Source: Octopus sinensis (lineage: Eukaryota). Taken from it: a DNA stretch of 64,000 bases. The stretch spans positions 61,194,001 to 61,258,000 of the forward strand of contig NC_043006.1 in the NCBI RefSeq assembly GCF_006345805.1, read 5' to 3'. How positions within the stretch are numbered: position 1 is the first letter of the stretch; each line of letters begins with the position of its first letter. Position numbers and translations under genes: made by a program. Of the stretch, positions 23,174-53,451 are shown one piece after another. The notes beneath the pieces were generated by a model. That model saw only the letters and a program-made list of their open reading frames with translations, made no database searches and was not told the DNA's origin.

Positions 23174-23252
23174 GTTAGGGTTAGGCGTTAGGGGTTAAGG
23201 GTTAGGGGTTAGGGGCTAGGGCTTAAGGTTAGGGTTTACGGTTAGGGTTTGG
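23174..23252 (+). repeat. Short degenerate interstitial TTAGGG-like array
   Basis: GTTAGGGTTAGGCGTTAGGGGTTAAGGGTTAGGGG..GGTTAGGGTTTGGG. Confidence 0.8.
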
Positions 23253-44239: not shown

Positions 44240-47200
44240 GTACTTCATATCTAAGCACTTCATATCTAAGCGCATCATATCTCAGCACTTCATAACTAAG
44301 CGCATCATATCTCAGCACTTCAAATCTAAGCGCTTCATATCTGAGCACTTCATATCTAAGCGTTTCATATCTCAGCACTTCATACCTCAGCACTTCATAT
44401 CTAAGCGAATCATATTTCAGCACTTCATATCTAAGCACTTCATCTCTGAACACTTCATAACTGAGCACTTCATATCTAAGCACTTCATATCTAAGCACTT
44501 CATATCTTAGCACTTCATATCTGAGCACATTCATATCTAAGGACTTCATATCTGAGCACTTCATATCTGAGCGCATTATATCACAGCACTTCATATCTAA
44601 GCACTTCATATCTGAGCACTTCATATCTAAGCGCTTCATATCTCAGGACTTCATATCTAAGCACTTCATATCTGAGCAATTCATATCTAAGCACTTCATA
44701 TCTGAGCACTTCATATATCAGGACTTCATATCTAAGCACTTCATATCTCAGCACTTCATATCTGAGCACTTCATATCTGCGCACTTCATATCTAAGCGCT
44801 TCGCATCTCAGCACATCATATCCAAGAACTTCATATCTAAGCACTTCATATCTGAGCACTTCATATCTAAGCACTTCATATCTAAGCACTTCATATCTAA
44901 GCGCTTCATATCTGAGCACTTCATATCTGAGCGCATCATATCACAGCACTTCATATCTAAGCACTTCATATCTGAGCACTTCATATCTAAGCGCTTCATA
45001 TCTCAGGACTTCATATCTAAGCACTTCATATCTGAGCACTTCATATCTAAGCACTTCATATCTAAGCACTTCATATCTGAGCACTTCATATATCAGGACT
45101 TCATATCTAAGCACTTCATATCTGAGCACTTCATATCTGAGCACTTCATATCTAAGCACTTCATATCTAAGCACTTCATATCTAAGCGCTTCATATCTAA
45201 GCACTTCACATCTGAGCACTTCAATTCTAAGCACTTCATATCTGAGCACTTCATATCTAAACACTTCATATCTAAGCACTTCATATCGGAGCACTTCATA
45301 TCTAAGCGTATCATATCACAGCACTTCATATCTAAGCACTTCATATCTGAGCACTTCATATCTAAGCGCTTCATATCTCAGGACTTCATATCTAAGCATT
45401 TCATATCTGAGCACTTCATATCTAAGCACTTCATATCTAAGCACTTCATATCTGAGCACTTCATATATCAGGACTTCAGATCTAAGGACTTCATATCTCA
45501 GCACTTCATATCTGAGCACTTCATATCTGCGCACTTCATATCTAAGCGCTTCGCATCTCAGCACATCATATCCAAGAACTTCATATCTAAGCACTTCATA
45601 TCTAAGCACTTATATCTAAGCGCTTATATCTAAGCACTCATATTAATCACTTCATATCTAAGCACTTCATATCTGAGCACTTCAATCTAAGAGATCATAA
45701 ATATCCAGCACTTCATATCTAACACTTCATATCTGAGTACTTCATATCTGAGCAGTTTTTTTTTTTTTTCATCTAGCATTCATATCTCAGGACTTCATAT
45801 CTAAGCACTTATATATCTGAGCACTTTATCTAAGCACTTCATATCTAAGCACTTCATATCTGAGCACTTCATATATCAGGACTTCATATCTCAGCACTTC
45901 ATATCTAAGCACTTCATATCTCAGCACTTCATATCTGAGCATCATATCTGCGCACTTCATATCTAAGCGCTCGCATCTCAGCTCATCATATCTGAGAACT
46001 TCATATCTAAGCACTTCATATCTCAGCACTTCATATCTAAGCACTTCATATCTAAGCACTTCATATCTAAGCACTTCATATCTAAGCGCTTCATATCTGA
46101 GCACTTCATATCTAAGCACTTCATATCTAAGCATTTCATTCTAAGTACTTCATATCTAAGCACTTCATATCTCAGCACCATATTAAGCACTTCATATCTA
46201 AGCACTTCATATCTGAGCACTTCATGTCTAAGCCACTTCCTTTCTAAGCATTCATATCTGAGCACTTCATATCTGAGCACTTCATATCTGATCACTTCAT
46301 ATCTGAGCACTTCATATCTAAGCACTTCATATCTGAGCACGTCAATCTAAGCACTTCATATCTAAGCTCTTCTATCTGAGAACCTCATATCTGAGCACTT
46401 CATATCTGAGCACATCATATCTAAGCACTTCATACTGAGGACTTCATATCAAGCACTTCATATCTGAGCACTTCATATTTGAGCACTTCATATCTAAGCA
46501 CTTCATATCTGAGCACTTCATATTTGAGCACTTCATATCTAATCACTTCATATCTGAGCACTTCATATCTGAGCACTCATATCTGAGAACTTCATATCTG
46601 AGCACTTCATATCTAAGCACTTCATATCTAAGAAAATTCAGAACTTCATATAAGCACTTCATATCTAAGCGCTTCATATCTGAGCCACTCATATCTAAGC
46701 ACTTCAATATCTGAGCACCATATCAAGCGCTTCATATCCAGGACTTCATATCTAAGCATTTCATATCTGAGCACTTCATATCTAAGCACTTCATATCTAA
46801 GCACTTCATATCTGAGCACTTCATATATCAGGACTTCATATCTAAGGACTTCATATCTCAGCACTTCATATCTGAGCACTTCATATCTGCGCACTTCATA
46901 TCTAAGCGCTTCGCATCTCAGCACATCATATCCAAGAACTTCATATCTAAGCACTTCATATCTGAGCACTTCATATCTAAGCACTTCATATCTAAGCACT
47001 TCATATCTAAGCGCTTCATATCTAAGCACTTCATATCTAATCACTTCATATCTAAGCACTTCATATCTGAGCACTTCATATCTAAGCGCATCATATCACA
47101 GCACTTCATATCTAAGCACTTCATATCTGAGCACTTCATATCTAAGCACTTCATATCTAAGCACTTCATTTCTGAGCACTTCATATATCAGGACTTCATA

Positions 47201-49050
47201 TCTCAGCACTTCATATCTAAGCACTTCATATCTCAGCACTTCATATCTGAGCACTTCATATCTGCGCACTTCATATCTAAGCGCTTCGCATCTCAGCACA
47301 TCATATCTGAGAACTTCATATCTAAGCACTTCATATCTGAGCACTTCATATCTAAGCACTTCATATCTAAGCACTTCATATCTAAGCACTTCATATCTAA
47401 GCGCTTCATATCTGAGCACTTCATATCTAAGCACTTCATATCTAAGCACTTCATATCTAAGCACTTCATATCTAAGCACTTCATATCTCAGCACCTCATA
47501 TCTAAGCACTTCATATCTAAGCACTTCATATCTGAGCACTTCATATCTAAGCACTTCCTTTCTAAGCACTTCATATCTGAGCACTTCATATCTGAGCACT
47601 TCATATCTGAGCACTTCATATCTAAGCACTTCATATCTGAGCACTTCATATCTAAGCACTTCATATCTAAGCTCTTCATATCTGAGAACCTCATATCTGA
47701 GCACTTCATATCTGAGCACATCATATCTAAGCACTTCATATCTGAGGACTTCATATCTAAGCACTTCATATCTGAGCACTTCATATTTGAGCACTTCATA
47801 TCTAAGCACTTCATATCTGAGCACTTCATATTTGAGCACTTCATATCTAATCACTTCATATCTGAGCACTTCATATCTGAGCACTTCATATCTGAGAACT
47901 TCATATCTGAGCACTTCATATCTAAGCACTTCATATCTAAGAACTTCATATCTAAGCACTTCATATCTAAGCGCTTCATATCTGAGCACTTCATATCTAA
48001 GCACTTCATATCTGAGCACTTCATATCTAAGCACTTTATATCTAAGCACTTCATATCTAAGCACTTCATATCTGAGAACCTCATATCTGAGCACTTCATA
48101 TATGTGCACATCATATCTAAGCACTTCATATCTGAGCACTTCATATCTAAGCACTTCATATCTGAGCACTTCATATTTGAGCACTTCATATCTAATCACT
48201 TCATATCTGAGCACTTCATATCTAAGCATTTCATATCTGAGCACTTCCTATCTAAGCGCTTCATATCTGAGCTCTTCATATCTAAGCGCTTCGTATCTGA
48301 GCACTTCATATCTAAGCACTTCATATATGAGAACTTCATATCTGAGAACTTCATTTCTGAGGACATCATATCTAAGCACTTCATATCTAAGCACTTCATA
48401 TCTGAGAACTTCATATCTAAGCACTTCATATCTGAGCACTTCATATCTAAGCACTTCATATCTGAGCACTTCATATCTAAGCACTTCATATCTGCGCACT
48501 TCATATGTGAGCACTTCATATCTAAGCACTTCATATCTAAGCACTTCATATCTAAGCACTTCATATTTGAGCACTTCATATCTGAGCAATTCATATCTGA
48601 GCTCTTCATATCTAAGTACTTCATATCTGAGCGCTTCATATCTAAGCACTTCATATCTAAGTACTTCATATCTGAGCACTTCATATCTAAGCACTTCGTA
48701 TTCGAGCACTTCATATCAAACACTTCATATCTGAGTATTTCATATTGAAACACTTCATATCTGAGGACTTCATATCTAAGCATTTTATATTGAAGCACTT
48801 CACATCTAAGCACTTCATATCTGAGCACTTCATATCTGAGCACTCCATATCTAAGCACTTCATATCTCAGCACCTCATATCTAAGCACTTCATATCTAAG
48901 CACTTCATATCTGAGCACTTCATATCTAAGCACTTCCTTTCTAAGCACTTCATATCTGAGCACTTCATATCTGAGCACTTCATATCTGAGCACTTCATAT
49001 CTAAGCACTTCATATCTGAGCACTTCATATCTAAGCACTTCCTATCTAAG
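44240..49050. repeat. 15-bp tandem satellite (GCACTTCATATCT[A/G/C]A), about 320 units, with higher-order blocks
   Basis: Direct sequence; reads (YEVLR)n on minus and (STSYL)n on plus. Confidence 0.98.
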
Positions 49051-50349
49051 TGATGTTTTCTTCTTTCACGGGGAGAGGTAGATTTTCCGCACGATGGTAA
49101 TGGTATTCAGTTTTACTGATGTTAATATTTAAACTCAAGCGTTGTACAGTTCTTGATCGGAGGAAGGAAAGACGCGAGTTGAAGATACGAGGTCATTTTT
49201 TGATAAAGAATTATTTTCGTCTCGCCTTGGAAAGATGTTACTGAGTGGTCAATCATCGCTCCCTGTCAGTGGCCAGGAAAATATAATCGCTATGATAAGT
49301 TTCATTATTCTCTATAGATTAATCTTTCACCCATGTTTCAAGATAAATCCGCCAGTATATTAACATTCAGTAACATTTCTCGTTCTGCAAATTTCACCAA
49401 AGGTAATATTTTAGTCTTTCCGCACATCATGGATAATGAAATTTGAAGTGTTGAGTGTCAGTCTCATTAACAATGCAGCACATACACAAGAAGAGTTGCC
49501 AATAAGTACCAATTATACTTACAAATTAGATAGGCATCTACAACCTCATCTATATATAATTGAATTAGTCCTGTGTTGTGAATTTGCTTCGGAATCATAG
49601 CTACCAAGAAGTATCTTGAAAGACATATGCCATCGCTAACTTCATTTGTCTTCTCTGAATTTCCGGCAATTTGGATCTAATCATATATCATGTATCATTT
49701 TTAATTACTTCGTCATTCAGAAATATGTATAGCAAAACAAATTGAGAAAATTAATAAAAAAAGAAGAAGACATTTAAAAATGCTTACACAAATACACGTA
49801 CCCACGCCTAACAGAAACTCTTCCACGCGCACATATTTACGAATAACTACATGTCTGATAATTAGATTACTGTAGCAAAATTACAGCATTATACTGTAGT
49901 TTACGATCATGTTAAGAATAGCCATTGAACAATTTACAAAATTAAATGTTTCCTGGAGCTAAATAACAATAACATTCATCCTAATCAGGACTGCCGCAGT
50001 ATGACAGCATATAATCTTTACTGTAGAGTACTGTTACTGAAAGTCTCTCGTTCAAGAGATGTAGAAATAATAATTATTCTCTTGTTCGAAGGTTATATGG
50101 ATACAGTTTGTGTATCAAATAGCTAACTTAAGGCGATGGCCTCATGGAGCTAATAAGCGGACAGCTTTTTTCTTATTTTTATAAGAATGCCATATTAGTA
50201 TGGCGATAACTATTATTTTCCGGGAACGCTGCCGCTGTTCTCTTTTAGAGAGACTTAGTTATTTTAATATTTCTATTATTGAAAACAAGTGGATGTATTC
50301 CACCGAAACTAGGTAAATAAAACCATCGAACAGAGATTGTCGGAAGCGA

Positions 50350-50428
50350 CACCTACTGGCTGGCTACGCTGCATTGAAAAGGGGCAATACTCCGAAACGC
50401 GTCTGTAGCTGCCGGTCAAGTAGTGTGG
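50350..50428 (+). ncRNA. Type I hammerhead ribozyme, U3:A8 core variant (copy 1)
   Basis: Stem I GCTGCA/TGTAGC extended by GGCTGGC/GCCGGTC and CTACT/AGTAG; core TTGAAAA 50374-50380; stem II GGGG-CAATA-CTCC; GAAA; CGCG; GTC site, predicted cut after 50403. Confidence 0.85.
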
Positions 50429-50711
50429 AGCGACTGACCTCCCTTGTTCGAAGGTTATATGGATACAGTTTGTGTATCAAATAGCTAACTTAAGGCGATG
50501 GCCTCATGGAGCTAATAGGCGGACAGCTTTTTTCTTATTTTTATAAGAATGCCATATTAGTATGGCGATAACTATTATTTTCCGGGAACGCTGCCGCTGT
50601 TCTCTTTTAGAGAGACTTAGTTATTTTAATATTTCTATTATTGAAAACAAGTGGATGTATTCCACCGAAACTAGGTAAATAAAACCATCGAACAGAGATT
50701 GTCGGAAGCGA

Positions 50712-50790
50712 CACCTACTGGCTGGCTACGCTGCATTGAAAAGGGGCAATACTCCGAAACGCGTCTGTAGCTGCCGGTCAAGTAGTGTGG
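50712..50790 (+). ncRNA. Type I hammerhead ribozyme, U3:A8 core variant (copy 2)
   Basis: Identical to copy 1 at +362; predicted cut after 50765. Confidence 0.85.
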
Positions 50791-51835
50791 AACGACTGAC
50801 CTCCCTTGTTCGAAGGTTATATGGATACAGTTTGTGTATCAAATAGCTAACTTAAGGCGATGGCCTCATGGAGCTAATAAGCGGACAGCTTTTTTCTTAT
50901 TTTTATAAGAATGCCATATTAGTATGGCGATAACTATTATTTTCCGGGAACGCTGCCGCTGTTCTCTTTTAGAGAGACTTAGTTATTTTAATATTTCTAT
51001 TAATAATTATTCTATTTACGAGAAATATTAATGCTATCTTTCTAAGTGAACATTTGTTCCTCCTCATCAATCACCAGTTTTACGAGGAATGCCTTTCATC
51101 AAATTCGTGCTAATTCCGGACTAAGATATCGTTTTATTGCCCCATTCTTTGATCATTACACCTGTTGTTACTGCCTCAATTACTGAATTTCATTGGCTCT
51201 GACAGAAATATGAGTTTATTTGGACCGAATATTTAAGCAAATATATTGTTTGTACCATTCGAATCTAAATTGATGAGCATTTCAACGTAATAAAATTCAG
51301 ATCTTGCCGTCCATGCACGATAAGAGGGATCCAAATCTATTTTTCATTTTCCGTTAAATATCTCCAATCTCGAAGTTCATATTCGATTGTTACTCTGTTA
51401 ATATCCATCCTTTTTACTGCGACCATTCTATCGGCTTATCCTTCCTAATCCTTAATTTCCCTCAGTCTTTAATTTCTATCTTGTTCTCACTGAACTTCGC
51501 TATTTTTTCTCCCACTTCTGGTATAAATTCCTATCATTTGGTTTTTTTAAATTTCTCTCTTTCATACTTGCCTTTCTTTTCCTCAGTTACTATTCCTTCA
51601 TCCTGCTGCAAACATCCCCGCTGCGGTCTAAGTTACCAGGGCCTACATTCCCATTCTTTCGTATTGAAATTTTCATCGACAGCAGGCGCCTTCTAATTCC
51701 CTTCTTTTCCACGTGTTAACACCAGACAAAAGTTTCTTCTTTCATTTCTCTCACTCATTCTCTCCTTCTCTCTCTCTCTCACACACTCTCTCTTTCTCCA
51801 CACACACAAAAATACACACTTATACACACAGGGAC

Positions 51836-51921
<86 letters not shown>

Positions 51922-52188
51922 GGAGAGAGGGAGAGAGATAAATAGATAGATAGATAGATATCAATTTGCATACGAACATTTTCACAGAAGTTGGCAACTA
52001 TAGTTTTAATATATTACTATTTAATATTTAAAATTAATATCTAATATGTTGAACCAGAAGCCAATATGAGAGTTTCTCTCATGGTATCGACCGCAATAGG
52101 ATTTGTTCTAAAACAACATTCACATTTAAGTAGAGATAAATCTTACGTCTCGGTATTAGTATTCCTTCTGTCACTAATATATATATAT

Positions 52189-52241
<53 letters not shown>

Positions 52242-53451
52242 TGACAAATTCAGTGGCTGACGGCCACACATTTTGGGTTTGCTACTGGTTTTTTATGTGT
52301 TGTTGGCGGGGAGATGTGTCGCTGCTATATCTTGCGGTTGAACGTCCATCATTAATAAGACCAAGGAAAGTCGAAGTCACGTGATCTGGTTGTCCCAGCT
52401 CCACCCATCCATATTACTTCCACACCTCAATCTCCATATGACTACCATTCCTTCCTCTACTCCTGTTACCCAGATCACCTTATCAAGTACATACGGCAAT
52501 ACCAATATAGCCAGATTGGACTTCATATTGGCAAGGAGGGATGAACATCCCTCTTTGGTTCATCCAATAATACAATATCGCCCGATGAAATGAATCCATG
52601 ATGATGATTAACCGAATGCTCACGGATAGTACGGTTTATAATGTACTAATCCCCAAATCATGCGATCTGTGGAAACGTAGGTAGCGATGTATTAAATATT
52701 TATAAATTCCGTCCTAGAATTATTCTCATTATATTTATCCTACATTATATCGGTATAACCGTGATGCAACACAAAAATCCTGACTCACTAGTCAGTATCA
52801 TCAGACGGTAGCCGTTTTCATACTTGATGACAAACCGCAACTCCACCCCACTATTTGGCACATGTAATTGTTGATCCACTCACAGGGATAAACCTCTTCA
52901 GGTTTCGAAGCAAAGAAATACTCATCATAATTTTAAACTTTTTCCAAATGAAAAATATATTTGATTATACATATATATATATATATATGTGTATAATATA
53001 TATATAAATATATGCATATATACATACATATATGTACATACCTACATCTACGTGTATATACACATGCATATATGGGTACAGGACATAAAATAAAACGTTG
53101 AACACAATGAGAAACGAAAACACAAATATAAAAAAAAATGGAAACGAACTTTTTTTCAAACAACGGTTATACAAAGCAACCTTCAATAGCAGTGTTTGAT
53201 AGTTATCTTTTCAAATTTATGACTGATCCAGAGAAAGTAGTTTCCGTTCACGTCTCTGTACCAACCATATTTTCATATCAAATGTAATATTATTTTGAAT
53301 TTGTAATGAAAAATGGTTCTTCCTCCTAAGCCTGATCATGGGGTTACTTTCTTCGGGTTTGAAATAATTCCTACTTGATAAATTACATCATGTATAATTC
53401 GTGCGTTATGCATCCATGATATTTCTGATGCTATTTATAAATATAATGCTA

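Follow-up and report, generated by a model that had tools for sequence, protein, structure and literature searches.

The insertion at positions 50081-51002 (plus strand) of the 64,000-nucleotide stretch of Octopus sinensis DNA analysed here (the window) is a young copy of a large, dispersed family of the animal non-LTR retrozyme type, and every feature that could be tested here places the family among the animal non-LTR retrozymes. Its units carry a hammerhead with a U3-A8 core, and its copies have two fixed internal 3′ ends, which is a signature of Penelope-type internal initiation. We consider it likely that the retrozyme is copied in trans by the reverse transcriptase (RT) and GIY-YIG endonuclease of a Penelope-like element (PLE), probably one of a young Hydra-clade family. 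The retrozyme class is already known; the strict rule of one site per strand, together with a possible donor whose frame is open, makes retrozyme mobilisation accessible to direct test.

Tandem Repeats Finder assigned the array a period of 362, 2.5 copies and 99% matches. The 2.55 units differ at two sites, 50156/50518/50880 (A/G/A) and 50430/50792 (G/A), and the longest ORF measures 46 aa among those overlapping 50000-51100 and 38 aa inside the insertion. A sequence-only reading had described about 2.5 near-identical 362-bp units without an ORF, and both points stand. No ORF for an RT with GIY-YIG lies inside the insertion, and the protein of the PLE discussed below (L186) had no tblastn match in the window. 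Exact copies of TAATAATTATTCT flank the array at 50068-50080 and 51001-51013 and are absent elsewhere in the window, as expected from the 13-bp target-site duplication (TSD) that had been proposed. The TSD and the array ends overlap by 2-3 bases (the first two bases of the 3′ copy are common to the insertion end), so the TSD length is 11-13 bp; TSDs in the family are mostly 12-13 bp. Units were numbered from the predicted cut, with 50404 as position 1; on this scale, the window copy is a single arm that starts at position 40 and ends at 237-238. The predicted 362-nt monomer between the cut sites (50404-50765, plus strand) is highly self-paired and folds better than shuffled versions of itself (z -6.24, 0/100).

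The first type I hammerhead spans 50360-50415 on the plus strand. Stem I pairs 50368-73 with 50404-09 (GCUGCA/UGUAGC) and is extended by an outer stem (50360-64/50411-15); the core UUGAAAA (U3 U4 G5 A6 A7 A8 A9) lies at 50374-80, stem II (GGGG/CUCC, 50381-84/50390-93) is closed by the loop CAAUA, and GAAA (50394-97), CGCG (50398-401) and a GUC with a predicted cut after 50403 complete the motif. The second hammerhead (50722-50777, plus strand) is identical in sequence, with a predicted cut after 50765; the cut sites previously placed at 50403 and 50765 are thus predicted in the right register, with GUC in both hammerheads. A type I hammerhead in every unit had been claimed. The geometry, GUC, CGCG and 4-bp stem II all hold; the core is of the U3-A8 type and only two of the 2.55 units contain a hammerhead. 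An unpaired U after the six stem I pairs (U1.7, 50410) and the A closing loop II (50389) are invariant in 25 aligned rows, and we take these to be the positions of the tertiary contact in extended hammerheads. The motif CUGANGA is absent from both strands of the window, and an Rfam scan of 48000-53000 returned no hammerhead at E<=1 and no other ribozyme family, because the core is the rare U3-A8 variant. Such covariation is natural and the ribozymes that carry it are active in vitro (Perreault et al. 2011, PMC3088659); it is also present in Schistosoma PLE hammerheads (Cervera and de la Pena 2014, PMC4209133). The register was fixed by an older copy (L061, 91% identical) with stem I GCUACA/UGUAGC and core UUGANAA. 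A core read as CUG-CAUU-GA with insertions was dropped since this older copy shows the stem I register, and a CUGACGA in L061 is a chance match within the outer stem. Twister, HDV-like and pistol folds were dismissed by eye, again with no Rfam match.

A search for the family gave 772 first-look candidates, of which 40 were scored; units 98-100% identical were found across many contigs, together with older subfamilies at 83-97% and 66-82% identity. The pattern TTGANAA-N8-24-GAAACGCGTC has 1,994 matches in the genome versus 9 for a reversed control, and its canonical CTGANGA form has 68 versus 6. U3-A8 replaces C3-G8 throughout the retrozyme family. Both Rfam and CUGANGA descriptors miss about 2,000 hammerheads in this one genome, and retrozyme surveys therefore undercount. 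In 235 motifs from fetched loci, core position 7 is variable (A 175, C 46, U 11); loop III reads CGCG in 214, CTAG in 7, CATG in 4 and otherwise in 10. Palindromy is kept through these changes (CGCG/CTAG/CATG), and would suit dimeric cleavage as earlier suggested.

The hammerhead fold is almost certainly kept under selection. Across 25 distinct sequences and 19 pairs, 94.3% of cells pair, and changes on both sides were seen at 5/19 pairs (two pairs of inner stem I, one of outer stem I, 10.1-11.1 and the loop III centre). The covariation score was 0.297 versus 0.168 for shuffled and <=0.082 for slid alignments; the number of doubly changed pairs was reached by 260/500 shuffles and is not above chance, and one outer-stem pair forms in just 10/25 rows. 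These rows were hand-picked from 79 distinct haplotypes that represent few related subfamilies, and the search pattern had already required a hammerhead-like core. We predict that the hammerheads are probably active in cleavage; for comparison, one of nine predicted Xenopus retrozyme dimers cleaved in vitro in the account given by a recent preprint (bioRxiv 10.64898/2026.07.22.740005). The lack of a canonical CUGANGA and of an Rfam match would also be expected if the array were a local tandem duplication, or a satellite, whose apparent hammerhead was dead or had arisen by chance. We give this a negligible probability: the 1,994 versus 9 pattern matches and the dispersed near-identical copies with TSDs refute a single-locus duplication, in keeping with the sequence-only reading, and the compensatory changes and the conserved loop III palindromy across subfamilies also speak against such an origin.

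We analysed insertion ends in 96 loci, sampled from perhaps 1,000; these remained from 115 locus records after 19 overlapping or duplicate records were dropped, and comprise 50 loci from the pattern list of one contig (C1) and 46 from best-hit searches, with pieces <50 nt ignored. Head-to-head arrangements of two arms account for 67 loci and single arms for 27, two are more complex, and no LTR-type arrangement was found among the 96. Arm 3′ ends fall at one of two sites in 155/167 cases, versus 6% expected. Site A (positions 170-180) accounts for 73/167 ends and site B (233-242) for 82/167; both sites read CTATTATT and they lie 63 nt apart. In the window (plus strand), site A is found at 50573-50583, with further copies at 50211-50221 and 50935-50945; it follows a GCCATAT/GTATGGC hairpin, and none of its copies forms the end of the insertion. 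Site B is found at 50636-50645, with a further copy at 50274-50283 and a third at 50998-51002, which is the 3′ end of the insertion, so that the window copy is a lone B arm. When both ends of a two-arm locus could be classed, one was A and the other B without exception (59/59; 0 AA, 0 BB); in the remaining 8/67, one end is unclassed. The C1 set of 50 loci alone gave 24/24 A+B, with 5 unclassed. Many pieces that seemed to span positions 1-50 were rejected as true ends, as these pieces extend to 175 or 238. The pairs L002/L008, L097/L098 and L066/L067 each show an identical insertion with identical flanks twice in the assembly, consistent with haplotigs or segmental duplicates.

Classed ends adjoin (TA)4 in 129/155 cases, and an exact TSD outside microsatellite sequence was found in 9/96 loci (12 bp in six, 13 bp in two and 23 bp in one). 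The junctions between arms mostly show a few bases of overlap. The 5′ ends are spread, with 27/167 at positions 37-54. Ends at the cut site are mildly enriched (10/167, P 0.004, in a window chosen afterwards; 3/83 versus 1.8 expected in the C1 set). Single arms start at positions 37-40 in 5/27 cases, including the window copy; this cluster may mark a transcript start or a stop of the RT at the foot of a long stem. Arms cross at least one cut site in 139/167 cases, a share that is inflated by the choice of loci, which implies that the copied RNA is often uncut at that site.

The prediction of dispersed multimers with TSDs and different phases was therefore borne out for dispersal, TSDs and 5′ ends, and not for 3′ ends, which occupy two sites. 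Rolling-circle reverse transcription of a monomer circle by an unspecified RT, starting in free phase, had been the proposed origin. Arms that reach 9.9 units in the longest single arm, varied 5′ phases and homogeneous loci agree with it, but the two fixed 3′ sites (155/167), the invariable A+B pairing and the inverted arms refute a free phase, and we hold this version to be very improbable. Ordinary LINEs (RTE, CR1, L1-Tx1) might instead have moved a SINE-like repeat, with inversions arising by twin priming of the L1 type. LINEs too can give TSDs of 12-13 bp and 5′ inversions, and LINE RT fragments were seen by eye within several fetched loci. However, neither a poly(A) nor a simple-repeat tail marks one 3′ end, two internal ends are used to the same extent, in 59/59 loci the inverted arm stops at the partner site whereas twin-priming sites vary, and an autonomous PLE in the same genome shows a matching A+B pattern. 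We find the LINE origin scarcely credible.

These ends resemble those of PLEs, which carry an inverted 5′ copy and in many cases a tail on just one of their ends (Craig et al. 2021, PMC8557442). For the Poseidon element PAc in vitro, both strands are cut and extended, two internal initiation sites bound the tail, and a dimer is predicted (Frangieh et al. 2024, PMC11167929). The octopus retrozyme shares with such endonuclease-bearing (EN+) PLEs, as far as the published descriptions of the Hydra clade and PAc go, the inverted 5′ copy, the one-end tail, the two internal sites and the priming of both strands, as well as 5′ truncation, partial tandems, (TA)n or AT-rich targets and a type I hammerhead that precedes the initiation sites. 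Unlike PLEs, it has no ORF, its hammerhead is of the extended canonical rather than the minimal pLTR type, and the distance from the cut is 175 nt to site A and 238 nt to site B; the spacing of 63 nt between the sites compares with PLE tails described as 30-40 bp and with about 65-70 in the Hydra family found here. That PLE machinery mobilises the retrozyme family is very likely in our view.

A candidate donor was reached by searching with a GIY-YIG fragment. This element (L186; C5:61733000-61740000, minus strand) is full length, with two pLTRs and an open frame of 717 aa encoding RT and GIY-YIG. It is under 3 kb long, has (TA)n targets and carries a pLTR hammerhead, which are Hydra-clade features, and the protein contains RWK, DKT, a CxCX5C linker, CxxC and CxH, read by eye against the motifs given in PMC8557442; on this basis it is assigned to the Hydra clade as a putative member. 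The protein matched no Pfam family and nothing below E 0.09 among PDB sequences. Family copies are about 1% apart (median), near the youngest retrozymes. Of the two-arm copies listed, 16/16 have one end at pLTR positions 269-286 and the other at 334-337, beside (TA)n; 20 copies were fetched and about 11 were picked for their head-to-head look. No blastn-level similarity links the L186 pLTR to the retrozyme (best E 0.62). The PLE B flank was the best of 724 windows against the retrozyme B flank for 3/3 PLE copies, and the A flanks matched weakly (ranks 107, 3 and 30 of 724), in a comparison whose windows were picked after the motifs had been inspected. The L186 hammerhead has the core CCGAAGA (U4C) and a stem III unlike that of the retrozyme; related subfamilies have CTGAAGA or CTGATGA.

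We lean towards an L186-type Hydra family as the donor. This choice is not firm, because other families with PLE-type hammerheads are present in the genome and one of them has the GCTACA stem I of older retrozymes together with a CGCG loop. Such hammerheads occur in L041, L048, L049 and L031-type loci, with a canonical C3-G8 core, a long stem II and a CGCG loop III; the L041 type shares GCTAC(A) in stem I with older retrozyme copies, and the two are possibly related. In the L031 type, the end falls in (TA)n about 150 nt past the cut and follows a hairpin. An old and mostly broken Penelope/Poseidon-like family was also found from L039 (L112-L131; 10,842 first-look candidates). In the 15 loci of old retrozyme subfamilies, no autonomous element was attached. 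A UAAC/GUUA stem is predicted to link sites A and B in the retrozyme fold; we rejected it as a recognition signal because it is absent from the PLE fold and broken by subfamily changes.

The proposed cycle would begin with transcription of tandem arrays. The hammerheads are predicted to cleave after GUC, probably in dimeric form by way of the palindromic loop III, which would yield 362-nt monomers, perhaps ligated to circles, and partly cut multimers. Judging by the insertion ends, the PLE endonuclease would then cleave (TA)n or other AT-rich DNA with a stagger of about 12 nt, and the freed 3′ ends would prime cDNA inside the unit, one strand at A (about 175) and the other at B (about 238). 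The same site was never used twice in an insertion; the priming chemistry is what we infer from these end positions. Each cDNA would cross at least one unit, uncut hammerheads included, and a head-to-head junction, often with a few bases in common, would then unite the two cDNAs. Where one strand receives no cDNA, a single arm would result, as for the B arm of the window. More tentatively, in a version that we would sooner doubt than adopt, a dimeric Hydra-clade protein takes up one circular RNA, primes both strands at the two fixed sites and rolls both cDNAs. If true, this would reveal which enzyme mobilises an animal retrozyme, and the one-ended tail of Penelope elements would be explained by a strict one-site-per-strand rule. 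The A+B rule (59/59), recurring on the PLE itself, constrains the mechanism of PLE integration.

As to the main template, we judge the chances of a circle to be even. A circular RNA, which is a predicted molecule here, is compatible with the data. Position 350 is polymorphic (63 C and 52 T units), yet it is uniform in 31/33 young loci versus a shuffled mean of 9.4 (maximum 18), and it agrees between arms in 18/18. Six variants are each private to a single sampled locus and fixed in every unit there, and three of them span both arms; a further 17 variants are common to some units and 154 occur in a single unit. This homogeneity suggests one reiterated template per insertion, as would be supplied by a circle; it may also reflect linear transcripts of homogeneous arrays, later conversion or smoothing by the assembly. 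In L023, 324G is found in three units of one arm and is missing from the other, which implies two templates or later conversion. Three loci with long arrays (L102, L103 and L151) show variants every two or four units or in a four-unit block, which may stem from dimer templates or from duplication after insertion. In public runs, 20 rows contain the queried stretch and none is recorded as RNA; the contigs of four runs, guessed to be RNA, cover only the repeat, and one contig of 392 nt equals 362+30, which a tandem array or a circle would give equally.

The same PLE machinery could instead copy linear multimeric transcripts that stem from a few homogeneous source arrays and have been cut in part or not at all, in which case circles, if made, would be side products and long arrays would lengthen later by unequal recombination. 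We place the probability of this linear template somewhat short of even. Five multi-unit arms end <=4 nt from the cut (L018, L028, L069, L072 and L146), which fits a linear RNA that has been cut at its 5′ end and whose inner ribozymes have stayed uncut, and the single arms that start at 37-40 resemble products of a fixed transcript start. The block-periodic variants of the three long arrays fit later duplication, and insertion of an anole PLE is unaffected by hammerhead mutants, with uncut RNA as the main substrate (PMC11167929). Against a linear template, the six locus-private variants fixed in all units suggest a single-unit bottleneck, where mosaics over generations would otherwise be expected; a variant that appears private among 96 of perhaps 1,000 loci may nevertheless come from an unsampled source array, and assembly polishing may also homogenise units.

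Compared with the animal non-LTR retrozymes described from coral, mussel and axolotl, the octopus family has the same tandem non-coding units (150-450 bp in those accounts, 350-390 in mussel, 362 here), a type I hammerhead of canonical size per unit with a 6-bp stem I, a 4-bp stem II and a short palindromic stem III, a GC content <50%, a TSD >4 bp, a self-paired monomer and PLEs in the genome. It differs in its family-wide U3-A8 core, which leaves the strict CUGANGA descriptor unmatched, and in the two fixed initiation sites, head-to-head arms and A+B rule; the portions of those reports available to us contain no end analysis. Homology to a PLE pLTR was not found here in the blastn comparison with L186, whereas the preprint reports it for 21 PLE matches in a set of 57 Xenopus families. 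Expression, cleavage and circles have been demonstrated for known retrozymes, according to the same accounts, and the octopus family is known from its sequence. The U3-A8 replacement of C3-G8 is shared with the variants of Perreault et al. 2011 and with the minimal hammerheads of Schistosoma Cercyon PLEs (PMC4209133). For Schistosoma, about 1,300 heterogeneous and mostly single minimal motifs are described; by contrast, about 2,000 extended-hammerhead cores stand in tandem units here and are kept down to about 75% identity.

PLEs have been named as strong candidates for moving retrozymes (Cervera & de la Pena 2020, PMC7229834), and Li, Clavereau & Pollet (2026; bioRxiv 10.64898/2026.07.22.740005) report PLE co-occurrence and pLTR homology and state that the mechanism is still to be worked out. 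As these two sources put it, in the text available, the enzyme and route of animal retrozyme mobilisation are an open question. The octopus family adds insertion-level evidence for Penelope machinery, and it brings together in one genome what a test would need: a 362-nt RNA on which both start sites are mapped, and a young PLE whose frame is open. Our literature search, which covered sources outside subscription papers, Repbase and Dfam, found no paper on retrozyme insertion ends or on a U3-A8 retrozyme family. In the octopus literature, we found no report of a hammerhead, and none of the words ribozyme, retrozyme and hammerhead appears in PMC13282606.

We note two further repeats in the window. 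A degenerate (GTTAGGG)n tract at 23174-23250 is telomere-like. A 15-bp minisatellite, ACTTCATATCTAAGC, occupies 44242-49050 in about 323 copies with strong GC skew, and contains stop-free runs of up to 700 codons that would read as repeats of TSYLS, FISKH or LRYEV.
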